Shown here: in pieces, positions 1,960-41,266 of the stretch
Numbering within the stretch: position 1 is the stretch's first letter
Layout: each line of letters opens with the position of its first letter
IMG/VR virus record: IMGVR_UViG_2541047897_000010
DNA length: 41,642 bases
DNA from: a virus
Taxonomy: Duplodnaviria; Heunggongvirae; Uroviricota; Caudoviricetes
Reading direction: 5' to 3' (one strand)
Made by a program: the position numbers and the translations under genes
Notes under the pieces: model-generated
What the model was told of the DNA's origin: nothing
The model's database searches: none
What the model saw: only the letters and a program-made list of their open reading frames with translations

Positions 1960-2768
1960 CACTTCACCTCTTGTGATGGTTTTGCTGCAAAATACTCGAT
2001 ACCTTTATCCCAGATAGATTTTATGGTCGACCACGTGACTGGCACTTTAATTTCAATACGTCCGCTCCCGTCACAGGTATCGCAATCATCATCGCCAAAG
2101 CATTCCAGGCAGCTTATAAACGTAGTTTCTGAAAATTCACCGGATAGCGCCCCCTTAGCGCCGTTCTCGGCTGTTAGTCTCTTCGGCACCATAACCCAAC
2201 CATCCGGAGTTACCGGAGAGTTGCCAGACAGTGCGTTCTGCAATCGTTCCAGCTTAACGTATTCCTGAACCCTGTTTCCGTCGCACGCCTGAAGCCATTG
2301 CACAGCCTTTTGCGCATCAGTGTGAAAGGCACAAGTGCGACCGTCATCAAATTGCATTTCGTAGAGGTCAGCAACCTGTTTAAACTGCGTTTGTGGCAAC
2401 TTGTAAGCCTGGCTTGCAGGTACGGCACCATAGAGCATGGCAGCGCGGCAGGCGTTCCAGCCTTCATCAAAACCGACTATGCCATTATTTAAAGACGGAC
2501 GAGCATCTGGCACCACCGGCACTGGCTTGGCTATATATAGCGGCTGAACATACCAGCCCTTTGATAACCAACTGTCAGCAATGTTTTTACTCCTGGTTAT
2601 TGCCGGAATACCTAAGCCATTGTCTGAATGCAGCCATGCCACCGGATCCTCTTCCAGCGATGCCAGAGCAATTTCATAAGCACGGCGCTCAACATTGTCT
2701 CGCACGTCCATGCTGCTGATTCGTTCTTTGATTTCTTTAATCAGTTCTTTATCGGTAAATGTGGTCAT
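1959..2768 (-). CDS. Hypothetical phage early protein (Cys-rich C-terminus)
   Basis: 269-aa ORF, GGAG SD, start/stop overlaps with neighbours typical of an operon. Confidence 0.5.
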   Translation of the reverse strand: MTTFTDKELIKEIKERISSMDVRDNVERRAYEIALASLEEDPVAWLHSDNGLGIPAITRSKNIADSWLSKGWYVQPLYIAKPVPVVPDARPSLNNGIVGFDEGWNACRAAMLYGAVPASQAYKLPQTQFKQVADLYEMQFDDGRTCAFHTDAQKAVQWLQACDGNRVQEYVKLERLQNALSGNSPVTPDGWVMVPKRLTAENGAKGALSGEFSETTFISCLECFGDDDCDTCDGSGRIEIKVPVTWSTIKSIWDKGIEYFAAKPSQEVK

Positions 2769-3130
2769 TATGCTCCAGCCTCCGGTGCTTTTGGCATTAC
2801 TGCCCAGTGAGTGATGTTGACGTTTTCAAGGTCCCCGACCTGAAATATCCACTGCCATTCTCCGGTTTCTTTTTGCCCCCATGTATACCAGAGAGAACGC
2901 CAGCCAATCAGCCAGCCTTCTCCATTAGCATCAAATAACAGAACACTTTCATTCGCTGGCGGCAGTTCAGCTGACACTGGTATTACTTTGTTTTCCAGTG
3001 CTGCACATTTAGCTTCAAGCGCATCAAATTTACGCACCAGGTATTCAGCATCCGTTTCATTCACTTTCAGATCTCGCGGTACACATTTCCCGCGAAGAAA
3101 TCCTTCCATTTCGAAAACATTCATGCGCAT
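2768..3130 (-). CDS. DUF551-like hypothetical protein (CPS-53 YfdS-like by position and length)
   Basis: 120-aa ORF with Trp-rich C-terminal region (GWLIGW...WYTWGQ); overlapping stop/start with upstream gene. Confidence 0.5.
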   Translation of the reverse strand: MRMNVFEMEGFLRGKCVPRDLKVNETDAEYLVRKFDALEAKCAALENKVIPVSAELPPANESVLLFDANGEGWLIGWRSLWYTWGQKETGEWQWIFQVGDLENVNITHWAVMPKAPEAGA

Positions 3131-3657
3131 TTGCGTAACTCCGATAATTCGTTAAAGCGTTCCATAAACATCCCGTAGGCATGGCCTGGAGCCAGTGGAA
3201 TCACGTTGAACATCTCTGTTGCCGGGATACCTTCCAGTACAGGCCAGAAAGAGCCATCATCAAGCCCGAGATCGCGGCGTTCGGTTGCCAGCATGATGAG
3301 ATCGGCATATTTCACGGGCGTACTCATAACCGGTGGTAACCCGTATTTCTCACGGATTACGGCGTCTATTTTTTCTTCCATCCGTTTATAGTCAGGAAGA
3401 AGGCGTTTCAGTGGTGCGGGAATGTCCTGGCAATACGCTTCTGTTGCATCATGCATTAACGCTTCAAAAGCAAATTCCTGCGGCACCAGCTGGCTGCAAA
3501 GAACCGCATGTTGGGCGACGCTGTAGAAGTGCGAAAGATGACCGGCAAAGCGACAGATATTTGAAAGGGAAACCGCGATATCGTTAATATCGATGTCGTC
3601 TTTATTTATCCTGTCATAATAAAAATGCTTCCCGGAAAAAGTTTTAATAAATGACAT
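3121..3657 (-). CDS. yfdR: HD-domain phosphohydrolase (YfdR-like 5'-deoxynucleotidase)
   Basis: HD motif (ALMHDATEAY) and upstream His (FAGHLSHF); start chosen at MSFIKTF (ATG 3655-3657) giving 178 aa; ORF track extends to a GTG at 3684. Confidence 0.6.
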   Translation of the reverse strand: MSFIKTFSGKHFYYDRINKDDIDINDIAVSLSNICRFAGHLSHFYSVAQHAVLCSQLVPQEFAFEALMHDATEAYCQDIPAPLKRLLPDYKRMEEKIDAVIREKYGLPPVMSTPVKYADLIMLATERRDLGLDDGSFWPVLEGIPATEMFNVIPLAPGHAYGMFMERFNELSELRKCA

Positions 3658-3784
3658 TTTGTTTTCCACGTATATGCGCTGCACCGCGCTGAATTCTGCT
3701 AAAAAGAATCCCTCACCATCCGGTGATTATTGAGTTAATTACGTTTCCATAAATGCCCCCGCAGGGGCATTTGCAGTAATGAAA

Positions 3785-4609
3785 TCAGGCGGTGAAAGTA
3801 CCAATAAAGGTTTCTACTTTGCTGTCTTTGAATTTCTCAACAAGCAGATCACGAAATTCGTTAGCCATTTCTTCCTGCACCGCTTCCAGCTGAATAATGC
3901 GCAGAACCAGTACAGGACGATCGCCAGTGATAATGCTGAGGCGTAATTTAAACGGACGTTCTTTCAGACCTTCAAACGGAACGCATTTAAATTCAAATGC
4001 CACTGGCATAATGTCTTTGGTCTTCGCTTCGACAGACTCCATCAGGGAGCGTTTGCCGCTGAAGTCATTGTCTTCAAAATCAGCGGTCTGGTTCGCTTCA
4101 ATTGTGATTTTACGGATCGCCGCAGCCGCTTTGGTTGCCTGAATGGCGTCACCATTAGCATCAAAGCCCACAAGGTAGTCGGCCCAGTCTTCAATCCATT
4201 CTGCCAGTGACTTCTGGGAGTTACGCTCGCCATTAACAGACAACAGAGCAGAGAACGGTGCTGTCTTTTTCAGTTTGAGAGTGGCGGTGTTATCTGCGTG
4301 ACCTGGTTCATCAATAGTACCCAGGTTAAGCACACTGACGGCTCGCATATTATCGGCATCGATAAAGCAGCGGGTGCCTTCATCTGCAAGATCTTTAGAA
4401 TAACGGGTAAAGTCATCGATGCTGGCAGTGGAAAGTGCACCACGGAAACGGAAACGATTTAAATTAAATTTTTCCAGATCATGAATGCGGAAATTCTCAG
4501 GCAATGCCACAGCATCGGCACCAATCTTACTGATAATTTCATTAACACCCTGAGCAGAAATAAGGGCATGGATTTGATTAATTGCGGTTGCGTCTAAGTT
4601 CTGAGACAT
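3785..4609 (-). CDS. yfdQ: DUF2303 family protein (YfdQ-like)
   Basis: 274-aa ORF, GAGGA SD; length and sequence recalled as matching K-12 CPS-53 YfdQ. Confidence 0.55.
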
Positions 4610-7284: not shown

Positions 7285-8117
7285 ACAGTTTAACGGCAAA
7301 TAACCGTTTGTCGCAACAGCTGGTGGTCAGCGTCGCTGAACACCTGTTGTTACGGCATGAATGCAGATTACCAAATCACCTGGCTGTAAGTAACCACAGA
7401 GAACTTTACCTGACTGTGGGGGGCGAGTTGTGCAGGAACTTAACCGCTGGTTTCGTGACGGAAGAGGGCTTTATGTCCATGTTATTCGTTGGGAGCCAGA
7501 AACACAGCGCGTTATCTATCTTCGCAAAGACTACCCGCATGAGTGCTTTAGTCCTTTGTGGAAATTCAGGCGTGATTTTGTTGAGTGTGAAGGACCACCA
7601 GCACATTGATTCTGCCATTCCGGGACGTTACACTGTTCAGGCACCTTATAAAGCGGGTGACGGGATTGGCGTCCTGGAAATGTTATCGGCGATATATGAC
7701 GCGCCAGCGTCTTTTTTATCGTCTGTGTCTGTGCACACCCAAATTATGGTGGGCTGGACGGGGGCACCGAAAGGTGCGCCGGTTTCCGATAACGCCGGTT
7801 ACGCCAACCCCGTTCAGTTCACCACCAGCGAAATTGGCGTTTCCGGTGGTGAAGGTAATTCACTGTTATCGGAGGCTGCCATCATGGCTACTGTCCCAGC
7901 CCTCACTCGTCTGAATGATGAAGACTTACATAAACTCAGTTATGTAACAACTGCACTACGTGCTCTGCGCAAGGTAACTCTTTCGGATCCGCAGGCGCAT
8001 CAGGTTTTGGTAGAAACCCTTCTTAACTTGCAGGCTGAACGTATTCGTCTGGCGGATAAGGCTAATTTTCATATTCACCGTCTCCTGAATATCAGCGGAG
8101 GGCATCGTCATGCTTAA
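7281..8117 (+). CDS. Hypothetical early protein, no family recognised
   Basis: 278-aa ORF with ATGA stop/start overlap with upstream gene. Confidence 0.4.
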   Translation: MNSLTANNRLSQQLVVSVAEHLLLRHECRLPNHLAVSNHRELYLTVGGELCRNLTAGFVTEEGFMSMLFVGSQKHSALSIFAKTTRMSALVLCGNSGVILLSVKDHQHIDSAIPGRYTVQAPYKAGDGIGVLEMLSAIYDAPASFLSSVSVHTQIMVGWTGAPKGAPVSDNAGYANPVQFTTSEIGVSGGEGNSLLSEAAIMATVPALTRLNDEDLHKLSYVTTALRALRKVTLSDPQAHQVLVETLLNLQAERIRLADKANFHIHRLLNISGGHRHA

Positions 8118-30694: not shown

Positions 30695-31770
30695 ACGACA
30701 ATGTCACGCTACGGGTAAATGGCCGGGAGTGGAATGGCTGGACATCGGTGCGCATCGGTGCCGGTATTGAACGGCTGGCGCGGGATTTCAGTGTGGAGAT
30801 CACCCGCCAGTGGCCGGGAGATGAGGGTATCACCACGCTTCAGCCGCGCATTAAAAACGGTTCAAAAGTGGAGGTGCTGATTGGTGATGAGCTGGTGATC
30901 ACCGGCTGGGTGGAGGCGACGCCCGTTCGTTACGATGCCCGTTCGGTCAGCACCGGTATTGCCGGACGCAGTCTGACCGCTGACCTGATTGACTGTGCAG
31001 CCGAACCGACACAGTTTAATGGACGATCGCTGGTACAGATTGCGCAGGCGCTTGCTGCGCCTTTCGGCATTGAGGTGGTGAACAACGGTGCGCCGTCGGG
31101 TGTTATTCCTGATGTCCAGCCTGATCACGGTGAAACGGTGATTGAGGTAATCAACAAAATACTCGGTCAGCAGCAGGCACTGGCTTACGACGACCCGCAC
31201 GGCAGGCTGGTGATTGGCGGTATTGGCTCAACGCGGGCACATACTGCGCTGGTACTCGGGGAAAACATCCTTTCCTGCGATACGGAGAAGAGTATCCGGG
31301 AGCGGTTTTCTGTTTACCAGGTGGCGGGGCAGCGTGCCGGAAACGACGATGATTTCGGTGAGGCCACCACCACCGCGCTGCGGGCCCGCACAGAGGACGC
31401 ATTTATTGCCCGTTACCGTCCGATGTATATCAGGCAGACAGGGCAGGCTACGGGGGCAGGCTGTATTGCCCGTGCGGACTTTGAAGCCCGACAACGGGCG
31501 GCGCGGACGGATGAAACCACCTATGTGGTGCAGGGCTGGCGACAGGGTAACGGTACGCTGTGGCAGCCCAACCAGCGGGTGATTGTCTTTGATCCGGTCT
31601 GTGGTTTCGACAATACCGAACTGCTTGTTTCGGAAGTCACGTTTACTCAGGACCAGAACGGCACCCTGACGGAAATCCGTGTCGGCCCACCTGATGCTTA
31701 TCTGCCTGAACCCGAAGCCCCCGGCGCGCGGAAAAAGAAAAAAGCCAGAGTACAGGAGGACCCGTTCTGA
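30691..31770 (+). CDS. Baseplate hub protein (Mu gpP / P2 gpD-like)
   Basis: 359 aa; synteny in Mu-like baseplate block. Confidence 0.6.
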   Translation: MNDNVTLRVNGREWNGWTSVRIGAGIERLARDFSVEITRQWPGDEGITTLQPRIKNGSKVEVLIGDELVITGWVEATPVRYDARSVSTGIAGRSLTADLIDCAAEPTQFNGRSLVQIAQALAAPFGIEVVNNGAPSGVIPDVQPDHGETVIEVINKILGQQQALAYDDPHGRLVIGGIGSTRAHTALVLGENILSCDTEKSIRERFSVYQVAGQRAGNDDDFGEATTTALRARTEDAFIARYRPMYIRQTGQATGAGCIARADFEARQRAARTDETTYVVQGWRQGNGTLWQPNQRVIVFDPVCGFDNTELLVSEVTFTQDQNGTLTEIRVGPPDAYLPEPEAPGARKKKKARVQEDPF

Positions 31771-32318
31771 TGAGGACGATTGAAGCCATGCAGCGACAAC
31801 TCCTCGGCCTGATTGGGCGGGCCGTGGTGAAAAGCATCAGTGCCGCCACGAAATGTCAGACCGTGGATGTGTCCCTGATTGCCGGTGAACCCAAAGCCGG
31901 GGTTGAACATCTTGAACCCTACGGTTTTACCTCAAGGGCAAACAGCGGTGCGGAAGCGGTGGTGTTGTTTCCGGATGGCGACCGTTCTCATGCGGTGGTT
32001 GTTACGGTGTCGGACCGGCGCTACCGCCTGAAAGGGCTGCAGACGGGTGAGGTGGCTGTCTATGACGATCAGGGGCAGTCCGTGACGCTGACCCGGGAGG
32101 GGATCGTGGTGGACGGTGCAGGTAAAACGATCACGTTTCGCAATGCACCTGAAGCACGTTTTGAAATGGACCTGGAAGTGACAGGACAGGTGAAAGACCT
32201 GTGCGACTCCGGCGGCACCACCATGTCAGCGATGCGGCTTGCCTATAACGGGCATCGTCACAGAGAGAACGGTCAGGGCAGTAACACCGACAAACCGGAT
32301 AAAGCGATGGAGGCATGA
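31770..32318 (+). CDS. Baseplate assembly protein V-like (spike)
   Basis: 182 aa; synteny. Confidence 0.6.
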   Translation: MRTIEAMQRQLLGLIGRAVVKSISAATKCQTVDVSLIAGEPKAGVEHLEPYGFTSRANSGAEAVVLFPDGDRSHAVVVTVSDRRYRLKGLQTGEVAVYDDQGQSVTLTREGIVVDGAGKTITFRNAPEARFEMDLEVTGQVKDLCDSGGTTMSAMRLAYNGHRHRENGQGSNTDKPDKAMEA

Positions 32319-32743
32319 TGGAACTGTGGCTGACGGTGAACGGTAAACGCACCTGCGCCAGCGCACCGCTGGATCCGCTGACCCGCTCCGTGGTGATTTC
32401 CCTGTTTACCTGGCGGCGGGCGGAGCCTGATGACAACGCCGACGTCCCGATGGGATGGTGGGGGGATACCTGGCCTGCGGTACAGAATGACCGTTACGGC
32501 TCCCGACTGTGGCTGCTTCAGCGCAGCAAACTGACCAATCAGCTGGTGCAGACGGTAAGGGGGTATATCCGCGAATGCCTGCAATGGATGATTGATGATG
32601 GCGTGGTGTCCCGTATTGATCTGGATATCCGCCGCACCGGGATTAATGAACTGGGTAACAGTATCACTCTCTGGCGTCGTGACGGACCGGTAATGATTTC
32701 TTTTGATGATCTGTGGAGTGCGATAACGCATGGCGGACAGTGA
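32315..32743 (+). CDS. GP46-family baseplate protein
   Basis: 142 aa; synteny. Confidence 0.55.
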   Translation: MMELWLTVNGKRTCASAPLDPLTRSVVISLFTWRRAEPDDNADVPMGWWGDTWPAVQNDRYGSRLWLLQRSKLTNQLVQTVRGYIRECLQWMIDDGVVSRIDLDIRRTGINELGNSITLWRRDGPVMISFDDLWSAITHGGQ

Positions 32744-33788
32744 ATTTCAGCGCCCGACGCTGGCAGAAAATATCAGTATGCTCCGTAACGATTTATTCGC
32801 CAGGCTGGACGTCAGCGACACGCTCCGGCGCATGGATGAAGACGTGCGGGCAAAGGTGTATGCGGCGGCGCTGCATACGGTTTACGGGTACATCGATTAT
32901 CTGGCAATGAACATGCTGCCTGACCTGTGCGATGAGTCCTGGCTGGCGCGACATGCTGCGATGAAACGGTGTCCGCGCAAGGGGGCCACGGCTGCCAGCG
33001 GGTATATGCGCTGGGAAGGTGTCAGCGATGGCCTGAAGGTGACTGCCGGGAGCGTGATTCAGCGCGATGACCTGGTTCAGTACACGGCAACTGCCGATGC
33101 AACCAGCTCCGGTGGTGTCCTGCGTGTGCCGATCGCCTGCTCAAATGCAGGCGCGGTCGGTAACACTGACGACGGTACGGCATTAATCCTGGTCACGCCG
33201 GTGAATGGTCTGCCGTCTTCCGGTGTGGCTGACACCCTGACAGGCGGATTTGATACTGAAGATCTGGAAACGTGGCGCGCCCGCGTCATTGAGCGGTATT
33301 ACTGGACGCCTCAGGGCGGGGCTGACGGGGACTATGTCGTCTGGGCTAAAGAAGTGCCCGGCATTACCCGCGCATGGACATACCGACACTGGATGGGAAC
33401 GGGGACTGTCGGTGTGATGATTGCCAGCAGTGACCTGATTAATCCCATTCCGGAAGAGTCAACGGAAACGTCGGCAAGACAACATATCGAGCCACTGGCC
33501 CCGGTGGCAGGCTCTGATTTGTATGTATTCAGGCCGGTGGCGCATAAAGTGGATTTTCATATCCGCGTGACGCCGGACACACCGGAAATACGGGCTGCCA
33601 TCACCGCGGAGTTGCGTTCGTTCCTGCTGCGTGATGGTTATCCGCAGGGAGAACTGAAGGTGTCACGTATCAGTGAAGCGATTTCCGGTGCGAACGGGGA
33701 ATACAGCCATCAGTTGCTTGCCCCGGCGGACAATATCTCCATTGCGAAAAATGAACTGGCGGTTCTGGGGACGATTTCATGGACGTGA
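32730..33788 (+). CDS. Baseplate J-like protein
   Basis: 352 aa; synteny and size. Confidence 0.7.
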
Positions 33789-34363
33789 CAAACGATGATT
33801 ACATCCGTCTGTTGTCGGCACTGTTGCCCCCTGGTCCGGCGTGGTCAGCCAGCGATCCGGCGATTGCCGGTGCAGCACCGTCATTAACCCGCGTTCATCA
33901 GCGTGCGGATGCCCTGATGCGGGAGCTGGATCCGCGCACCACCACTGAACTGATAAACCGCTGGGAGCGTCTGTGCGGTCTGCCGGATGAATGTATTCCG
34001 GCGGTAACGCAGACCCTTCGCCAGCGTCAGCAACGGCTGGATGCGAAGGTTAACCTGGCGGGCGGCATCAACGAGGATTTTTACCTTGCACAGCTTGCTG
34101 CCCTGGGCAGACCAGACGCTACCATCACGCGATACGACAAAAGCATGTTCACCTGCTCATCGGCCTGTACTGACGCGGTGAATGCGCCGGAATGGCGGTA
34201 TTACTGGCAGGTCAACATGCCAGCAGCCACCAACACCACCTGGATGACATGTGGCGATCCCTGTGATTCCGCGCTGCGTATCTGGGGTGACACCGTTGTC
34301 GAGTGTGTGCTTAACAAACTCTGCCCGTCGCATACCTACGTAATTTTTAAATATCCGGAGTAA
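33779..34363 (+). CDS. Tail protein, DUF2313 (Mu gp48 / YmfQ-like)
   Basis: 194 aa; precedes tail fibre. Confidence 0.6.
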
Positions 34364-34366
34364 TCC

Positions 34367-35491
34367 ATGCATCGTATAGACACGAAAACCGCGCAGAAGG
34401 ATAAGTTCGGCGCGGGTAAGAACGGTTTTACCCGTGGTAACCCCCAGACTGGCACGCCTGCCACCGATCTGGATGATGACTACTTTGACATGTTGCAGGA
34501 AGAACTTTGTAGCGTTGTTGAGGCATCCGGTGCCAGTCTGGAGAAGGCGCGGCACGACCAGCTGCTTACCGCGCTTCGTGCGCTGCTGTTAAGCCGCAAG
34601 AATCCGTTTGGCGATATCAAATCGGATGGCACTGTGCAAACGGCTCTCGAAAACCTTGGTTTGGGAACACTGCAATCATCCTTCACAGATAAAACGGGTA
34701 AAATTGCATTAAATGGCGGGTGGGGGCTTGGGATAAAGGCAGACCAGGTAAGCGGAACTATGGCGGCGTTGGACGTCAGTCGCTTTGATTATTTTGCCCC
34801 TGCAGATAATATCGGTCCTTATCCTGGGCAGTGGGCTGGTGGTATTTCATTTGCTAACTCAGGTTCAACCGGGTGGCAAATCTGCGGTGCGTCTCTCGGT
34901 TCCATTCCTGACTTTAGTGTGAGGATAAAAACGAATCAGACTGCATTTTCTGACTGGTATAAGTTGTACCACACAGGATTTAAACCCACTCCCGCTGATA
35001 TAAACGCTATCCAACGTGATGCGTGTGATGTGGCTGGGTTTATTTCCAACAATCAACAAGACCCATACATGAGGCATTCGGCATCGAATAACATCATACA
35101 GCTTGCCACTCGTCAGTTTGTTTCTCAATCTATTTCCAGCCTCAGTCTGGGTACAGCAGCAACAAAAAATGTGGGTACAGGTGCTGGACAAATACCGGAT
35201 ATGTCTAGTTTTACGAGTGGTACCGGCTGGGCATCTTTACCGGGTGGGACTATTATCCAGTGGGGTATTGCAGCCTCTGGTCAAATTGGCGATCCGCAGA
35301 CAATCAATTTCCCCGTACCTTTTACAAATTACAGTACAGTTCAGCTTGTTGCTTCATATGATAACGCTGGCGCTTCAGGTGCACCTTATAGCTTTGCAGC
35401 TCAACCTATCAGTAATACCCAGTTCAAATTATTAAATTCAACATCATCATCAGCCGTTATTTACGCTCGGTGGATTGCGATCGGGAGATAA
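34367..35491 (+). CDS. Tail fibre protein (constant N-terminus joined to currently expressed variable C-terminus)
   Basis: Conserved N-terminus [22 protein letters not shown]...; crossover site inside gene; C-terminal part AT-richer. Confidence 0.75.
34645..34670. repeat. Left inversion crossover site (gix/hix-like)
   Basis: TCTCGAAAACCTTGGTTTGGGAACAC; inverted copy at 37024-37049. Confidence 0.55.
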
Positions 35492-35496
35492 TTAGA

Positions 35497-35940
35497 ATGA
35501 ATAAATATTTTTATGATGTATCTACAAATGCTTTCTATCCGATAGCTATGAAGGAAATTTATGAATCAAATGGAATTAATTTTGACAATGCTAAGGAGGT
35601 TGATGAAAAACTATTTATTGAGTATTCAGGCGAACCACCGAAAGGGAAAATCCGCATTGCTGGTGAAGATGGTTTTCCTGCCTGGGGTGATATTCCGCCG
35701 CCAACGCACGATAAACTTGTTGCAGCAACTGAAGCACAAAAACAACTGCTAATCGACCAGGCTAACGAGTACATGAACAGCAAGCAATGGCCGGGAAAAG
35801 CTGCAATGGGACGGCTGAAAGATGCCGAAAAGGTACAGTATAACGCGTGGCTGGATTACCTGGACGCACTGGAGCTGGTTGATCCCTCCAGTGCTCCAGA
35901 TATTGAATGGCCTACGCCTCCGGCAGTTCAGGCCAGATGA
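35497..35940 (+). CDS. Tail fibre assembly protein (Tfa), expressed orientation
   Basis: ATG 35497; C-terminal conserved Tfa-like region (...YNAWLDYLDALELVD...). Confidence 0.65.
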   Translation: MNKYFYDVSTNAFYPIAMKEIYESNGINFDNAKEVDEKLFIEYSGEPPKGKIRIAGEDGFPAWGDIPPPTHDKLVAATEAQKQLLIDQANEYMNSKQWPGKAAMGRLKDAEKVQYNAWLDYLDALELVDPSSAPDIEWPTPPAVQAR

Positions 35941-36505
35941 CATTCGGCGCGGTGCTGGTATCTGTTGCCGTCACCGCGTCAATGTAATCCAGCACAGCGT
36001 TAAGCCGGGTTGTTTCTGCCTGCATCAGCTTCCGTCCGGCCTGTGATTTCAGTTGAATCAGACTGATGGAAGCCATTGCAGCATCAATCAGCGACTGGCG
36101 CTGTGCTTCTGCCGCTTCTACTGCGGCGCTATGCTGTGCCTCGGTATCCGTCACCCATTTCTCACCATCCCATTTATCGTATGGCGTTAACGGTGAAAGC
36201 GTGACATAACCGTCTTTGATGGCACCGATATAATCCACTGTAACAGCTGCGCCATTTTCAGTTGAGTAAACGGTCTCATTGCGATGGTCTTCTTCATGGC
36301 TCCATCCCTTACCCGTAAATACTGCCACTTTTCCCGGAATGTTTTCGCCCGGGTCAATACCAGTGGAACAGGCGGGTATACTTACGCCAGTATTAATATA
36401 TTCATCAGACCAGCCGGTATATTCATACGTTACTGCATTATAATAAAAACAACGCATATCGCCCGGCACTGTAGCCAGCCCATTTTCATCAAAAACAGGT
36501 TTCAT
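35912..36505 (-). CDS. Alternative tail fibre assembly protein (Tfa prime), silent orientation
   Basis: 197 aa on opposite strand; C-terminal region (...LNAVLDYIDAVTATD...) parallels Tfa. Confidence 0.6.
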   Translation of the reverse strand: MKPVFDENGLATVPGDMRCFYYNAVTYEYTGWSDEYINTGVSIPACSTGIDPGENIPGKVAVFTGKGWSHEEDHRNETVYSTENGAAVTVDYIGAIKDGYVTLSPLTPYDKWDGEKWVTDTEAQHSAAVEAAEAQRQSLIDAAMASISLIQLKSQAGRKLMQAETTRLNAVLDYIDAVTATDTSTAPNVIWPELPEA

Positions 36506-37077
36506 TATTTAGCCCTCACCAGAAAGTTAAATGCAATATTTCGTGGACGGGTTTCTGTACCTACATGTCCACTAATTTCACCATAACGTTTAACACTACG
36601 AGAGCTAAGAGCTCGTAGTGAGGAAGGCACCTTAAGACCGGGTTCGTCCGTTTTAACTATTCCCCCGTCACCATATGTAGCCAGTATTCCTGGGTTTACT
36701 CCTTCCCGTGCACTTCCTGCAGCAAGCCCGTCCCCCGTCCACAATTCCATATTGTGTGCATGATCCATAATTGTGTGTGATTGCCCTGAAAGTAGGGTAC
36801 GTCCGACATCAATCCCGCGCCCATCATCCCAGATACGAATGAAATCACCCCGTGCGTCAGGTAATGCTAGCGCCGGAAACACTTTCGCCAGCACAGGGTA
36901 ATCAGTGGCAGAGAATTTCGCGCCGTTGAACTTCAAAAACACCATACTGGACCAACTGTCGATTACAGTATTTGGCATTGCGGCGGACGGCCAGAAGAAC
37001 GGAACGCCAATAGCTGGAGCACCTTCTCCCAAACCAACGTTTAAGAAAATGCAGAGATTATGGCTAACTGGCATCAT
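36505..37077 (-). CDS. Alternative tail-fibre C-terminal coding segment (promoterless; fused to constant N-terminus after inversion)
   Basis: Reverse ORF whose N-terminal codons (..NVGLGEG..) are encoded by the right crossover site, mirroring ENLGLGT at the left site. Confidence 0.5.
   Translation of the reverse strand: MMPVSHNLCIFLNVGLGEGAPAIGVPFFWPSAAMPNTVIDSWSSMVFLKFNGAKFSATDYPVLAKVFPALALPDARGDFIRIWDDGRGIDVGRTLLSGQSHTIMDHAHNMELWTGDGLAAGSAREGVNPGILATYGDGGIVKTDEPGLKVPSSLRALSSRSVKRYGEISGHVGTETRPRNIAFNFLVRAK
37024..37049. repeat. Right inversion crossover site (gix/hix-like)
   Basis: TTCTCCCAAACCAACGTTTAAGAAAA, reverse complement of left site with identical core CCCAAACCAA-G-TTT. Confidence 0.55.
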
Positions 37078-37104
37078 CCCCGGTTTTTACTCAGGGGAAT
37101 GCTC

Positions 37105-37662
37105 ATGCTTATTGGCTATGTCCGCGTATCAACAAATGACCAGAATACGGAATTGCAGCGTAATGCGCTGGAGTGTGCAGGATGTGAGCTGATTTTTGAA
37201 GATAAGATCAGCGGCACTAAGTCCGACCGACCGGGACTGAAAAAACTGCTCAGAACATTATCAGCAGGTGACACTCTGGTAGTCTGGAAACTGGACCGAC
37301 TGGGGCGCAGTATGCGGCATCTTGTCGTGCTGGTGGAGGAGTTGCGCGAACGTGGCGTTAATTTTCGCAGCCTGACGGATGCTATTGATACCAGCACACC
37401 AATGGGGCGCTTTTTCTTTCATGTGATGGGTGCCCTGGCTGAAATGGAGCGAGAGCTTATTGTCGAACGTACTAGGGCGGGCTTTGCCGCAGCACGACAA
37501 GAAGGGAGGAATGGTGGGCGAAAGCCAAAGCTGACAGTAGAACAATGGGAGCAGGCTGGCAGGTTGATTGAATCGGGAATATATCAGCAGCAAGTCGCAC
37601 TGATTTATGATCTGGGTATTTCAACGGTGTATAAAAAATTCCCTGTAGCAAGTAAACCATAA
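37105..37662 (+). CDS. pin: Serine DNA invertase (Gin/Pin/Hin family)
   Basis: N-terminus MLIGYVRVSTNDQNT...; near-collinear with recalled Gin/Pin sequences; C-terminal HTH. Confidence 0.85.
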   Translation: MLIGYVRVSTNDQNTELQRNALECAGCELIFEDKISGTKSDRPGLKKLLRTLSAGDTLVVWKLDRLGRSMRHLVVLVEELRERGVNFRSLTDAIDTSTPMGRFFFHVMGALAEMERELIVERTRAGFAAARQEGRNGGRKPKLTVEQWEQAGRLIESGIYQQQVALIYDLGISTVYKKFPVASKP

Positions 37663-37688
37663 CCTTACGCCACATTGATGATCGCGGA

Positions 37689-38384
37689 TTATGCACTATT
37701 TTTAGGTCTTGTAACCCGAGGTGGGAGTTGTTTGGTTATATGTTCAAGTGATTTTTTGCCCAAGATAGTTCTTTGGACAAAACTTTCTATAGCTTCTAGC
37801 ATTTGTTCGAACTCACTTTTATTCGGGCTCCAACTGCGATGTGCGGCGGCGTTTCCTGCATCAATTACAGAAGATATAACGCATGCCTCAGTGTCGCCTA
37901 TGACTCCATCTTGTTTTAATTTTTCAACTTTTTCACCAAGCGGCAAACCGGGGTGAATTTGTAACAGTTCAGCAGTTCGATCAAAAATCGTCCGTAAACC
38001 GATGGACGAAAGGATGAAATGGTCAGAAGTATATGAAGAATACATTTCATTAAATATTTGAAAGAGCTGACGATCAACTGATTCAAGCTTGGATAACCAT
38101 ATCGGAGCTTGAAATGTTTCAGCGGCAGGATAGGTAGTGATCATATCTATAGGCGTTTCTACAAATTCACCATCACGATATTCGTGGGTAGTATGCTCAC
38201 TGAAGTGTTCGTTGTGGTGATAGAAGACAGTATCACAGCCATTGCATTGGAGTAGGTGATGGTAATGGTACCCATAAACTGGATATTGGGAATCCTCCCA
38301 GCTAGTGGTTAGCTTCCCATGCACAGTGCAGTTACGTAACCCACCGCATGTAGGGCAAAGAGCCTTGAGTATTTCCTTTTTCAT
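37689..38384 (-). CDS. Zinc-ribbon + DUF4145-like protein; candidate phage-defence/exclusion gene
   Basis: 231 aa in AT-rich island between invertase and dinI/int; N-terminal CPTC...CNGC; C-terminal helical domain with IDAGNAAAH motif recalled for DUF4145. Confidence 0.5.
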   Translation of the reverse strand: MKKEILKALCPTCGGLRNCTVHGKLTTSWEDSQYPVYGYHYHHLLQCNGCDTVFYHHNEHFSEHTTHEYRDGEFVETPIDMITTYPAAETFQAPIWLSKLESVDRQLFQIFNEMYSSYTSDHFILSSIGLRTIFDRTAELLQIHPGLPLGEKVEKLKQDGVIGDTEACVISSVIDAGNAAAHRSWSPNKSEFEQMLEAIESFVQRTILGKKSLEHITKQLPPRVTRPKNSA

Positions 38385-38732
38385 AAAGTCTCTGATTCTA
38401 TATGTAGGTTAAGACCACTATTAGCTATACGGACCTAATAATCAATCGTGTGCAGATACAAAAAAGCCCGTATAGCGGGATTTCATGTCACTAAGGGCCG
38501 CGGCTACTTTGCGTATCTTTTTTGTCTTCTCACCGTCTGGCCGGTATTTTGCTGAGACTGCTTATTTCCAGTTTTTACTAGTGCTGTACTGGTACTGCCC
38601 AATCATGATTGGTGGGGGACGGAGTTGAAACCGCAGCCACGTCGTATGCAAGAACGCGCTGCGGTTGGCTGGTGAACTTTCGATAGTGCGAGTATTGAAT
38701 GATTTCCAGCCGTTACAGATTTTACGTGTTTA

Positions 38733-38981
38733 TTAGTGAACAAACCACTCGTCAGCAGATTCCCAGGTATCTTTCAGAGTCTCCTGAACAAAAGTTTTTG
38801 CAGAATCCTTATCTGCGGTGCGTGTAACAGAAAGGCCATCATTGCTGGTGGCTTTTACTAACACCTCAACATCGTCATAACGCTTACTGATGCGTCGGGT
38901 TAATTCTTCCTTTAACGCATCCACAGCACCGGTTGGCATTTTAGTCATTTTTTCTTTGGCTATGCAGATTTCAATACGCAT
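38733..38981 (-). CDS. dinI: DinI-like SOS-regulated protein
   Basis: 82 aa; MRIEI...[12 protein letters not shown] closely parallels DinI; tandem LexA boxes immediately upstream. Confidence 0.75.
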
Positions 38982-38994
38982 AAAAGTCCCTCCA

Positions 38995-39014
38995 TACTGT
39001 GTTTGTATACAGTA
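38995..39014. promoter_or_regulatory. LexA (SOS) box 1
   Basis: TACTGTGTTTGTATACAGTA, perfect CTGT-N8-ACAG. Confidence 0.65.
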
Positions 39015-39022
39015 TTATTTTT

Positions 39023-39042
39023 AACTGTATGGATAAACAGTG
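39023..39042. promoter_or_regulatory. LexA (SOS) box 2
   Basis: AACTGTATGGATAAACAGTG, CTGT-N8-ACAG; 9 bp from box 1. Confidence 0.6.
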
Positions 39043-40140
39043 TCAAGAGGTCTTATTTCTGCTCCTTTGGAGCTCTTCAAAACGATTATGTAAAGATTTC
39101 GGATACAGTTCGGTATATACCTGCCATAGCACGTTTAATGAACGATGCCCTGTAACCTGGGCGACTTCCTCAATACTAAAACCAGCCTCAAATAAGCGAC
39201 TTGCCCCTTCTCTACGCAAATCATGGTATCGCAGATCCTTAATACCTAATTTGCTTCTTACTCTCTGAAATCCCGCAGTAACAGAAGTGCTGTTATATGG
39301 AAAAATGAATTCCGATTTTTGGGGCTGTCGTTGGACGATATCCCAGGCTTCCCCAAGCAAGGCTACTTTCATGTGGTTGCCTTCCTTTTTGCGTGGATCT
39401 TTCCTGTCTCTTACGAGTATAGATTTTTGTTCCTGGTCGAGATCTTCCCATCGTAACCGGCATACTTCTCCGATTCGCATACAGGACCATACAGAAAATT
39501 TGAGGATATCAACGAACGGAATTTTTGAGCATTTATGAGTAGATCGTTGTTGAAGGCCTGCAATGAGCATGTCCAGTTCATCAGATGCTGGTCTACGATT
39601 ACGACGGTTTGATTTACCAATCAAACCAAGTTTAAGTAGATATGGGCGAGCGCTTTTCGCCGGGTTTGATGTGTAATTAATTCCGTATACAGGTTTGGCC
39701 GCATCCAGAACACTGCCAAGATAACTAACATCGTGGCTGACTGTTGCAGGACCTGCACCAGCGTTGTTTCTTAGCCTGCAATGTTCAATTACGTCATTTT
39801 CTGTCAGTTCAGATAGTTTGATCGCGGAGATGTCACTATCCATAAGCAGTTCCAGCACATATCTTTTAGTACGGCCTGCTTTACCTCCGGCATTTGGGTC
39901 ATTTAAATATTTGTGTAGTAAGTCACGGACTGTAAGTCCGTCAACTGCATTTGATGATGGAATGCCATATAGATCTAATTCCATCACTTTCTGTGTGCCC
40001 CATGTTTTGGCATGAGCATGTTTAGGGAATGTTTTGCTTTCCCTGTAAGTGATAACACCTTTTTCTTTGATAATCACATTACAGCGATAGCGTGGTGTGC
40101 CATCGGATTTTAGTCGTTTCTCTATGTTATAGTACGCCAT
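39043..40140 (-). CDS. int: Tyrosine integrase, dusA-associated type
   Basis: 365 aa with catalytic R...HDLRR...GHRSL...Y residues; divergent from and adjacent to dusA. Confidence 0.85.
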   Translation of the reverse strand: MAYYNIEKRLKSDGTPRYRCNVIIKEKGVITYRESKTFPKHAHAKTWGTQKVMELDLYGIPSSNAVDGLTVRDLLHKYLNDPNAGGKAGRTKRYVLELLMDSDISAIKLSELTENDVIEHCRLRNNAGAGPATVSHDVSYLGSVLDAAKPVYGINYTSNPAKSARPYLLKLGLIGKSNRRNRRPASDELDMLIAGLQQRSTHKCSKIPFVDILKFSVWSCMRIGEVCRLRWEDLDQEQKSILVRDRKDPRKKEGNHMKVALLGEAWDIVQRQPQKSEFIFPYNSTSVTAGFQRVRSKLGIKDLRYHDLRREGASRLFEAGFSIEEVAQVTGHRSLNVLWQVYTELYPKSLHNRFEELQRSRNKTS

Positions 40141-40160
40141 TACACGACCTCGTTATTTCG

Positions 40161-40195
40161 GGTTCCCATAAAACGTGGGAACCTGTGCGGGAACC
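40161..40195. promoter_or_regulatory. Inverted plus direct repeats in int-dusA intergenic region (candidate integrase/regulator binding sites)
   Basis: GGTTCCCA-7nt-TGGGAACC then GGGAACC. Confidence 0.3.
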
Positions 40196-40228
40196 TAACG
40201 CGAGAAAAATAGCCTGAAATGTTCAAAA

Positions 40229-41266
40229 ATGCACGATAATCATGAAACAAAAAAAATTAATCAAACCAGCGTGATGCCTGAAAAAACTGGTGTTTACTGG
40301 AATTCTCGGTTTAGCATTGCTCCTATGCTCGACTGGACGGACAGACATTGCCGTTATTTCCTGCGTCTGCTTTCCCGCAATACGTTGCTGTATACCGAAA
40401 TGGTGACCACAGGGGCGATTATTCACGGTAAAGGTGATTACCTGGCGTACAGTGAAGAAGAACATCCGGTAGCGTTGCAACTCGGGGGTAGCGATCCGGC
40501 GGCGCTGGCACAGTGTGCGAAGCTGGCAGAAGCGCGTGGATACGATGAGATCAACCTGAATGTCGGCTGCCCGTCTGACCGGGTGCAGAACGGCATGTTT
40601 GGTGCGTGTCTGATGGGTAATGCGCAGCTGGTTGCCGACTGCGTGAAAGCGATGCGCGATGTGGTGTCGATTCCGGTGACGGTGAAGACGCGTATTGGCA
40701 TCGATGATCAGGACAGCTATGAATTTCTCTGCGATTTCATCAACACCGTTTCCGGCAAAGGTGAGTGTGAGATGTTCATCATCCACGCACGTAAAGCCTG
40801 GCTTTCTGGGTTAAGTCCGAAAGAAAACCGTGAGATCCCGCCGCTCGATTATCCGCGTGTGTATCAACTGAAGCGTGACTTTCCGCATCTGACGATGTCG
40901 ATTAACGGTGGTATCAAGTCGCTGGAAGAAGCTAAAGCGCATTTGCAACATATGGATGGCGTGATGGTCGGGCGCGAGGCGTATCAGAATCCGGGTATTC
41001 TGGCGGCGGTAGACCGAGAGATTTTTGGTTCCTCGGATATTGATGCCGATCCGGTGGCGGTAGTGCGCGCCATGTATCCGTACATTGAGCGTGAACTCAG
41101 CCAGGGTACGTATCTCGGCCATATTACCCGGCATATGCTGGGCTTGTTCCAGGGTATTCCTGGCGCGCGGCAGTGGCGGCGTTATTTAAGTGAAAATGCC
41201 CATAAAGCGGGTGCAGACATTAATGTGCTGGAACACGCGCTCAAACTGGTGGCGGATAAGCGTTAA
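40229..41266 (+). CDS. dusA: tRNA-dihydrouridine synthase A
   Basis: 345-aa ORF with Dus TIM-barrel motifs ([21 protein letters not shown]); alternative start at 40274 (MPEKT) possible; 5' end may be phage-supplied. Confidence 0.85.

Follow-up and report, generated by a model that had tools for sequence, protein, structure and literature searches.

A complete-looking E. coli prophage with a very probable two-site inversion switch of the Pin/Gin type in its tail-fibre operon

Known inversion systems and the layout of the locus

Textbooks have described the switching of genes by site-specific DNA inversion since the 1980s, and pinE, stfP and the gene for a tail fibre assembly protein are annotated routinely in E. 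coli genomes. The core of the hix sites, AA/TT, is also that of the crossover sites described here. In the present work, the whole stretch of viral DNA that was analysed, 41,642 nt, is referred to as the window. Salmonella Hin/hix, the P1 Cin/C segment and p15B Min have the recombinase subfamily and the 26-bp site design in common with the window. Hin flips a promoter, whereas the segment in the window carries coding cassettes, and p15B Min, with six sites, can adopt many permutations; the window has two sites. The G segment of phage Mu, with its invertase Gin, agrees with the window in logic and layout: the order Sc, gixL, Sv, U, U', S'v, gixR and invertase is the same, a Mu-type baseplate is encoded upstream, and at its 5' end the invertase gene of the window shares conserved DNA sequence with Mu gin. 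However, the core of the Mu sites is TC/GA and their outer bases are different, the G segment is ~3 kb long rather than 2,382 bp, the constant part comprises ~170 codons rather than 97, and the Mu fibre proteins are essentially unrelated to those in the window (at most 37% over short stretches).

The nearest relative is the Pin system of e14, a cryptic element at icd. In published experiments the e14 P segment was inverted by PinE and PinQ, and both of its orientations coexisted in K-12 cultures (PMC4272514, PMC12529663); the e14 protein StfE2 is reported to block the adsorption of other phages (PMC12529663). Gene order (stfP-tfaP / tfaE-stfE, pinE) and the TT/AA core are the same in e14 and the window, and the left and right sites in the window are identical to pixL and pixR at 24 and 25 of 26 positions, respectively. 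The segment in the window is longer than that of e14 (2,382 bp compared with 1,797 bp) and its host element is a complete-looking prophage, with ORFs from terminase to baseplate and a tyrosine integrase that adjoins dusA. The mechanism is the textbook one of the e14 and Mu kind, well known as the earlier note on this DNA had stated, and only the pair of cassettes is new, forming a new mosaic. The locus comprises the following features, in window coordinates:

34367..34657, plus strand: constant N-terminal part of the tail fibre (Sc, residues 1-97), outside the segment; ORF 34367-35491
34644..34669, no strand: left crossover site (pixL-like), CTCTCGAAAACC TT GGTTTGGGAACA, in a 12+2+12 register
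34656..37037, no strand: invertible segment, 2,382 bp from central dinucleotide to central dinucleotide
34658..35491, plus strand: Sv, the currently expressed fibre C-terminus, 277 aa, with a gp53-like C-terminal domain at its end
35497..35940, plus strand: Sv chaperone (U/TfaP-like, 147 aa); Caudo_TAP 9.8e-31, PHROG 188
35912..36505, minus strand: S'v chaperone (U'/TfaE-like, 197 aa); Caudo_TAP 7.5e-26, PHROG 105 1.5e-82
36505..37035, minus strand: S'v, the alternative C-terminus of tail-collar type (176 aa), silent in the present orientation, delimited by in-silico flip
37024..37049, no strand: right crossover site (pixR-like), TTCTCCCAAACC AA CGTTTAAGAAAA
37105..37662, plus strand: serine DNA invertase of the Pin/Gin family, 185 aa, outside the segment and 55 bp beyond the right site
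37126..37189, no strand: candidate recombinational (Fis) enhancer, within the invertase gene at its 5' end

We consider it very probable that these features constitute a two-site Pin/Gin-type inversion switch in the tail-fibre operon of this prophage. In such a switch, invertase dimers would bind the two 26-bp sites and, with a Fis-bound enhancer that probably lies in the 5' end of the invertase gene, would assemble into a synaptic tetramer on supercoiled DNA. Cleavage of both sites would be staggered by 2 bp at the central TT/AA, half of the complex would rotate by 180 degrees, and religation would leave the 2,382-bp segment flipped while the promoter of the fibre gene and codons 1-97 remain fixed. 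In the present orientation Sc would continue into Sv (277 aa, gp53-like tip), with the Sv chaperone gene behind it, and the other orientation would place Sc in frame with S'v (176 aa, tail-collar-type tip), followed by the S'v chaperone gene, so that a lysogen population would release two kinds of virion with different receptor specificity. We infer that inversion occurs in the window's own strain, that it depends on Fis and that the receptors of the two tips differ.

Crossover sites and the frame of the fibre gene

Both crossover sites are 26-bp imperfect dyads in opposite (inverted) orientation with an identical central dinucleotide, TT at 34656-34657 in the left site and AA at 37036-37037 in the right site. 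The two site strings quoted in the earlier note are present at the coordinates given there, with the right site at exactly 37024-37049; for the left site, the string does begin at 34645 but the canonical register begins one base to the left, at 34644. A repeat search recovers the pair as a 16-nt inverted repeat that is 94% complementary, with its arms 2360 nt apart. The pattern AAACCWWGGTTT, with at most one mismatch, has two matches in the window, both at the crossover sites, but with 0.44 matches expected and two or more found in 6 of 100 shuffles this is a weak test alone. A half-site weight matrix, trained only on sites outside the window (Mu gixL/R, e14 pixL/R and other prophages), scores the two sites at 30.2 and 29.7 bits, making them the top two 26-mers of the 41.6-kb window, with the next-best 26-mer at 8.2 bits and the best among 30 shuffles at 18.7 bits. 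The inverted orientation that had been proposed for the two 26-bp sites is confirmed. The site pair is not a chance repeat, and the window contains exactly two sites; a multi-site, shufflon-like system was rejected, as only two sites rise above background in the whole window. The right site is identical to that of E. coli elppa4, and the left inner half-site, together with the Sv sequence next to it, exactly matches the site recombined in the prophage pair UPEC132/N50.

The sites lie where a crossover keeps the fibre reading frame. The central TT of the left site forms bases 2-3 of the Leu97 codon in E-N-L-G-L-G, the stretch in which the crossover had been placed by the earlier note. Flipping the segment in silico joins the 97-residue Sc in frame to S'v and yields a 273-aa fibre, which agrees with the predicted fusion of a constant N-terminus to an alternative C-terminus. 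The fibre locus combines a constant N-terminus with two alternative C-termini; behind each C-terminus lies a Caudo_TAP chaperone gene of its own, and the crossover leaves the reading frame intact. That two opposed sets of fibre C-terminus and Tfa genes lie between the sites, also claimed previously, is confirmed by ORFs, Pfam and PHROG; the two convergent tfa genes overlap by 29 bp, at the 3' end of the S'v chaperone gene. The constant part is identical to the N-terminus of e14 StfP at 96 of 97 residues, and the genes upstream of it match the Pfam families Baseplate_J and Phage_Mu_Gp48; Sc attaches the fibre to the Mu-type baseplate, whose genes lie immediately upstream. The sites, the gene layout, the preserved frame and the intact invertase are all direct observations. 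Their consequences matter little past annotation: annotation of the fibre gene should list two alternative products, and a 2.4-kb inversion between assemblies of the prophage need not be an error.

Fibre tips, their chaperones and a possible role in host defence

The two tips belong to known fibre families. Residues 291-374 of the full protein that ends in Sv match Pfam PF21882 (5.3e-14), and Sv matches the PHROG 1396 tail fibre family (6.9e-73). Its nucleotide sequence is 98.3% identical to E. coli LP50-1 and 97.4% identical to UPEC132. Among deposited phages, the best match to Sv has 40.6% amino acid identity across 67% of its length, and none was found that covers 80% of the tip. S'v matches PHROG 3100 and 523, tail and tail-collar fibres (1e-50), has no Pfam match and is at most 59% identical to deposited phages; NCBIfam gave no match for either tip. 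PDB sequence searches with both fibre forms returned marginal matches only (9ZD7 gp92, E=0.004; T4 gp37 2XGF, E=1e-4, the latter a weak match of S'v to the gp37 tip) and no close solved structure for either tip. Comparing the tips with known proteins, as had been suggested, gives matches at the family level (Pfam, PHROG) and marginal ones in the PDB. The earlier suggestion that the variable domains may be new receptor-binding modules holds only in part: deposited phages contain no close match to either tip, but both are diverged variants within fibre-tip families already known. Among E. coli genomes, the S'v cassette is widespread and the Sv cassette rare. Sv may recognise a receptor that has so far been assigned to no fibre, and the rare tip could be exploited as a receptor-binding module when host range is to be engineered, although there is no sign of an unusual receptor.

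Compared with e14, the locus has the same system with different cassettes. Sv has 277 aa and the e14 StfP tip 112 aa, with 43% identity across 100 aligned residues, and amino acid identities are 58% between the Sv chaperone and TfaP, 53% between S'v and StfE, and 63% between the S'v chaperone and TfaE. In the present orientation, the S'v reading frame extends to an ATG at 37077, outside the segment, and the resulting invertase-proximal ORF starts MMP..., as does stfE in e14. This arrangement allows for a host-defence role, added to or replacing host-range switching, in which a truncated tip protein masks receptors and blocks the adsorption of other phages. The ORF from 37077 would then consist of a short leader and whichever tip adjoins it, so that inversion would switch the tip. 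A leader-type start is found both in e14 stfE (MMPFACYFFIFINV) and in the window (MMPVSHNLCIFLNV), after a flip the invertase-proximal ORF would carry a gp53-like domain, as StfE2 does, and it is for e14 StfE2 that the adsorption block was reported (PMC12529663). However, a consensus scan found no promoter-like site for the minus-strand ORF, PADLOC gave no match, and the Sv tip has only the 43% identity to the StfP tip noted above. The prophage is also complete-looking, unlike the cryptic e14, so that the classic virion function suffices. We therefore regard a host-defence role as unlikely, and hold as equally doubtful the combined form in which leader MMPVSHNLCIFLNV plus tip acts as a free receptor-masking protein while the same switch also sets the prophage's own host range. 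If it were true, the resistance of the host to other phages would switch with each inversion, as reported for e14 StfE2, but in a prophage that appears to be functional.

The invertase, its candidate enhancer and natural inversion in sister prophages

The invertase gene is intact and has the features of its family. Its ATG at 37105 is preceded by an AGGGGA Shine-Dalgarno sequence; a longer ORF from 37060 was rejected because homologues do not support it. The protein matches Pfam Resolvase PF00239 (1.8e-51) and HTH_7 PF02796 (2.2e-11), aligns with the Gin structures 3UJ3 (E=1.1e-91) and 4M6F, and is 84% identical to PinE, 76% to Mu Gin and 100% to WP_021563296 of E. coli elppa4, while NCBIfam returned only distant recombinase models, below their cut-offs. 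The start and serine family of the Gin-like invertase in the earlier note were thus correct, but the closest system is that of e14 Pin rather than Mu Gin. The N-terminal MLIGYVRVS9T is invariant with Gin and PinE and includes the catalytic Ser9, and in an alignment of six invertases Ser9 and 127 other positions are invariant, all of them kept in the intact ORF. Residues specific to Fis/enhancer-dependent invertases have been defined in Hin as K47, K48, R51, Q151, R154 and L155 (PMC3798978). The invertase in the window has these Fis-contact residues in common with Hin, as K46, K47, R50, Q150, R153 and L154.

The candidate enhancer consists of two G..C 15-mers at 37126-37140 and 37175-37189, with centres 49 bp apart and the first centre 96.5 bp from the centre of the right site, in a stretch conserved with Mu gin DNA. 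Across seven invertase genes, synonymous invariance is concentrated in the first 15 codons (7/14, compared with 11/100 elsewhere; Fisher p=0.0014), but at the distal candidate Fis site, whose centre is rich in G+C, the same comparison gave no excess of synonymous conservation. When synonymous sites were profiled pairwise against gin, pinE and the LP50-1 invertase, the results were noisy and uninformative on the enhancer. The pattern of conservation only suggests an enhancer in the 5' end of the gene. A simple consensus scan found no promoter for the invertase, and fewer sites than in shuffles; within the segment it found no sigma-70-like promoter other than one weak internal match at 35228, and the promoter and terminator scan of the segment gave nothing useful.

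Inversion at these sites is seen directly in relatives. Whole-segment megablast searches of 5,426 complete E. coli genomes, with the native and the in-silico flipped segment, found no genome covering at least 80% of the query, and relatives were therefore compared through sister prophage pairs and 400-bp junction probes. In E. coli JB2 and 19SZHZ886Rt, flanks of 1871 bp and 947 bp are identical, the intervening 1882 bp is the reverse complement with one mismatch, and the breakpoints lie inside TTGGTTTGGGAGAAG. The second pair, UPEC132 and N50, has identical flanks of 2076 bp and 2966 bp around 2326 bp that is an exact reverse complement, with the crossover confined to TTGGTTT, central TT included. 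Sister prophages have therefore undergone natural inversion at these sites. With the junction probes, Sv is fused to Sc in 2 complete E. coli genomes and adjoins the invertase in 2, and S'v is fused to Sc in 73 and adjoins the invertase in 253.

These observations bear on whether the locus could be a frozen relic, with the layout of a switch but a defective invertase, site or enhancer, such that the Sv fibre is always made. The window is a single sequence in one orientation only, its inner half-sites are unlike in their last bases (GGTTTGGGAACA compared with GGTTTGGGAGAA), the enhancer is a candidate and the invertase promoter was not found by the scan, all of which speaks for a relic. However, the invertase ORF is intact and keeps the residues, Ser9 among them, that are invariant in Gin, PinE and four other prophage invertases, the identical protein is kept in E. 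coli elppa4, and an inner half-site with this same asymmetric sequence, GGTTTGGGAACA, was used in the UPEC132/N50 inversion. Other invertases of the Pin family, if present in the same cell, could also work in trans, as has been reported for the action of PinQ, PinR and PinE on e14. A relic is thus very unlikely, somewhat more so than a role in host defence. A chance inverted repeat beside an unrelated resolvase gene, with no site-specific inversion, has in its favour only the weak short-pattern test and is effectively refuted by weight-matrix scores far above every shuffle, sites located exactly at the frame-preserving point of two fibre genes and near-identical to the experimentally used e14 sites, and sister-prophage inversions that break within them.

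The locus in the window is also linked by its Sv cassette to P2-like prophages. UPEC132 and N50, in which both orientations are observed, carry the Sv + tfa cassette of the window at 97.4-97.5% nucleotide identity and have an identical inner half-site. They differ in that their constant part is a long P2 H-type N-terminus, their left outer half-site is TTCTCACATACC, their invertase gene is only ~80% identical in nucleotide sequence, and their other cassette diverges beyond window position 36193. The mosaic joints at the crossover sites illustrate the movement of fibre-tip cassettes between prophages with Mu-type baseplates and P2-type prophages.

Gene order and reading frame of the invertible segment

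The window very probably contains a Pin-type inversion switch with two sites and a probable dependence on Fis, which alternates two fibre tips and, with each tip, the chaperone that matches it. The genes upstream of the fibre gene encode a baseplate of the Mu type (Baseplate_J, Phage_Mu_Gp48), and the invertible segment itself extends from 34656 to 37037 (2,382 bp) between two crossover sites:

34367-35491, + strand: gene for a 374-aa fibre that ends in a gp53-like domain (PF21882, 5.3e-14; PHROG 1396, 6.9e-73)
34644-34669: left crossover site, CTCTCGAAAACC TT GGTTTGGGAACA, 12+2+12 register of Gin/Hin-family sites
35497-35940, + strand: Caudo_TAP chaperone gene (Pfam domain search)
35912-36505, - strand: second Caudo_TAP chaperone gene (Pfam domain search), overlapping the first by 29 bp
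36505-37035, - strand: tail-collar-type fibre C-terminus without its own N-terminus (PHROG 3100 and 523, ~1e-50)
37024-37049: right crossover site, TTCTCCCAAACC AA CGTTTAAGAAAA, 12+2+12 register of Gin/Hin-family sites
37105-37662, + strand: serine recombinase, 185 aa (Resolvase, 1.8e-51; HTH_7, 2.2e-11)

In the present orientation the constant N-terminal part of the fibre (Sc, residues 1-97) is joined to one tip (Sv), with the alternative tip (S'v) silent. In the left site, the central TT forms bases 2-3 of the Leu97 codon (…A-L-E-N-L-G-L-G…), and the right site, read on the minus strand as …L-N-V-G-L-G-E-G…, has the same phase. Reverse complementing 34656-37037 in silico yields an unbroken protein of 273 aa that consists of Sc (1-97) and S'v (176 aa), which bears out the proposal of an earlier note that crossover within the ENLGLG codons joins the N-terminus to an alternative C-terminus. 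The opposed sets of fibre C-terminus and Tfa genes expected between the sites were also found, as two fibre tips and two Caudo_TAP genes. Inversion would alternate Sc-Sv and Sc-S'v, each tip with its own chaperone. A simple promoter scan detected essentially no promoters inside the segment, which fits expression of a cassette only when it is joined to the fixed 5' end.

The silent-tip ORF (36505-37077, - strand) begins at an ATG-ATG (MMPVSHNLCIFLNV), 14 codons outside the segment. The start of e14 stfE is of the same kind, and conservation of TGGCATCAT reaches as far as Mu. An invertase-proximal product of the StfE/StfE2 type may really start here, or the stretch may belong to the promoter region of the invertase. 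A block of phage adsorption has been reported for e14 StfE/StfE2 (PMC12529663), and by analogy this ORF could have an added role in host defence, compatible with the inversion switch. Such a role is unlikely, however, with no promoter for the ORF in the promoter scan and no match from PADLOC.

Invertase, crossover sites and inversion in related prophages

The recombinase gene, which starts outside the segment, encodes the Gin-like serine invertase that had been predicted there, with 76% identity to Mu Gin, 84% identity to PinE of e14 and 100% identity to a protein from E. coli elppa4, in which the prophage shares the dusA context. Among solved structures it matches Gin best, in the catalytic-domain and full-length entries 3UJ3 (E=1e-91) and 4M6F (E=3e-90), and Ser9 and 127 further positions are invariant in an alignment of six invertases. 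Fis/enhancer-dependent invertases are set apart from resolvases by Hin K47, K48, and R51 in helix B and Q151, R154, and L155 in the DNA-binding domain (McLean et al., PMC3798978). In the alignment, the window invertase keeps all of the equivalent residues (K46, K47, and R50; Q150, R153, and L154).

E. coli JB2 and 19SZHZ886Rt share a prophage region with identical flanks of 1871 bp (left) and 947 bp (right), between which 1882 bp are reverse complemented with 1 mismatch and breakpoints within TTGGTTTGGGAGAAG / CTTCTCCCAAACCAA. A P2-like prophage of UPEC132 and N50 has a cassette 97.4-97.5% identical in nucleotide sequence to Sv and tfa of the window (2493-4041 of the extracted UPEC132 locus, L008; 2872-4414 of the N50 locus, L009), with an inner half-site, GGTTTGGGAACA, identical to that of the window. 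Here the flanks are identical over 2076 and 2966 bp and the 2326 bp between them are an exact reverse complement. The differing half-sites on the two sides confine the exchange to TTGGTTT, which includes the central TT. In this prophage a long fibre N-terminus of the P2 H type precedes the cassette, and both orientations are represented across the two genomes. For the P segment of e14, both orientations coexist in K-12 cultures (PMC4272514), inversion is carried out by PinE, PinQ, and PinR at TTGGTTTGGGAGAAGG, and the inverted state is deposited for about one third of 562 E. coli genomes (PMC12529663). Counting with 400-bp junction probes in complete E. coli genomes placed Sv fused to Sc in 2 genomes and adjoining the invertase in 2, and S'v in these positions in 73 and 253 genomes, respectively. 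That the window holds a frozen copy that has lost the capacity to invert is quite improbable, given its intact invertase and the part that an identical asymmetric half-site played in the real UPEC132/N50 inversion.

The left and right sites are mutually inverted and have a common central dinucleotide, which reads TT on one strand and AA on the opposite one. In a repeat search the pair came up as an inverted repeat of 16 nt with 94% complementarity and a spacing of 2360 nt. The short core pattern, which matches twice in the window, is weak evidence by itself, with at least two matches in 6 of 100 shuffles. A half-site weight matrix trained on outside sites only (Mu gixL/R, e14 pixL/R, and three other prophages) gave the two sites scores of 30.2 and 29.7 bits, compared with 8.2 for the third-ranked 26-mer of the 41.6-kb window and 18.7 for the top of 30 shuffles. 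The crossover sites are real and number exactly two, and a chance repeat has next to no probability. The site strings quoted in the earlier note occur where it placed them, with the left register beginning one base further left, and both its observation and its interpretation of an invertible fibre segment are correct.

In Hin, the proximal Fis site lies ~100 bp from hixL (PMC3798978), and for Mu the title of Kahmann 1985 (cited by PMC3798978) refers to a stimulating site inside gin. A G…C 15-mer at 37126-37140, its centre 96.5 bp from that of the right site, is a candidate proximal Fis site in the window, and another at 37175-37189, centred 49 bp beyond the first, is a candidate distal site. 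DNA conservation between this stretch and Mu gin is strong. Across seven invertase genes, invariant amino acids have invariant codons in 7 of 14 cases within codons 1-15 (37105-37149) and 11 of 100 elsewhere (Fisher one-sided p=0.0014, with the codon window picked after data inspection), which suggests an overlapping cis element that is probably the proximal Fis site of an enhancer. The distal candidate has no excess of synonymous-codon invariance in these genes. Overall, the sequence features suggest a candidate Fis enhancer within the 5' end of the invertase gene.

Known systems and possible origin of the fibre-tip cassettes

The e14 P segment is the closest relative: its pix sites match the window sites at 24/26 and 25/26 positions, and its constant fibre N-terminus is the same at 96/97 aa. 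In contrast, Sv is 277 aa long and the StfP tip 112 aa, with 43% identity across 100 aligned residues. S'v shares 53% identity with StfE, and the chaperones 58% and 63% with those of e14. In sequence, the window cassettes are different alleles from the e14 cassettes. The Mu G segment follows the same logic, but its site core is TC/GA and its fibres are unrelated to those of the window.

The window is 98.3% identical to E. coli LP50-1 over 31300-36193, 99.7% identical at the nucleotide level to elppa4 over 37023-40698, and 90% identical to JB2 over 35588-37634. Similarity changes precisely at the crossover sites (34666; 37021-37023) and once inside tfa', the chaperone gene of S'v (36193), which suggests that fibre-tip cassettes have been exchanged among prophages at or near recombination sites. 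No complete E. coli genome matched at least 80% of a 3.4-kb query comprising the segment and its flanks (34300-37700) in either orientation. As an inversion switch, the system belongs to a very well-known kind, of which it is a new mosaic member. LP50-1 has a near-identical fibre gene (98.3% nucleotide identity; 3068-4192 of its extracted locus, L001) annotated as a truncated stfP pseudogene and a separate gp53-like gene; this split, compared with the one intact 374-aa ORF of the window, may reflect either a frameshift or an artefact of annotation.

The closest match to Sv among 50,697 deposited phage genomes has 40.6% identity over 67% of its length, and the closest to S'v 58.6% over its full length. 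This makes the two tips divergent alleles within fibre-tip families that are already known. The suggestion that they may be new receptor-binding modules holds only in part. By their sequence matches, both tips are known from prophages and not from characterised phages.

Other features of the prophage

Between the invertase and the integrase (37689-38981, - strand) are cargo genes for a DinI-like protein and for a 231-aa DUF4145 protein (PHROG 1305, 'DNA binding protein'); PADLOC defence models matched neither product. In the early region, adjoining Rfam matches to isrK (RF01394, 55.4 bits) and C4 antisense RNA (RF01695, 82.8 bits) at 7641-7829 (+ strand) resemble a c4 antisense immunity/antirepressor control module of the P1/P7 type, here in a prophage with a Mu-type baseplate. 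A tyrosine integrase gene (39043-40140, - strand) directly adjoins dusA (40229-41266, + strand), so the prophage is inserted at the 5' end of dusA, an arrangement also present in E. coli elppa4 and T309.Ta3.
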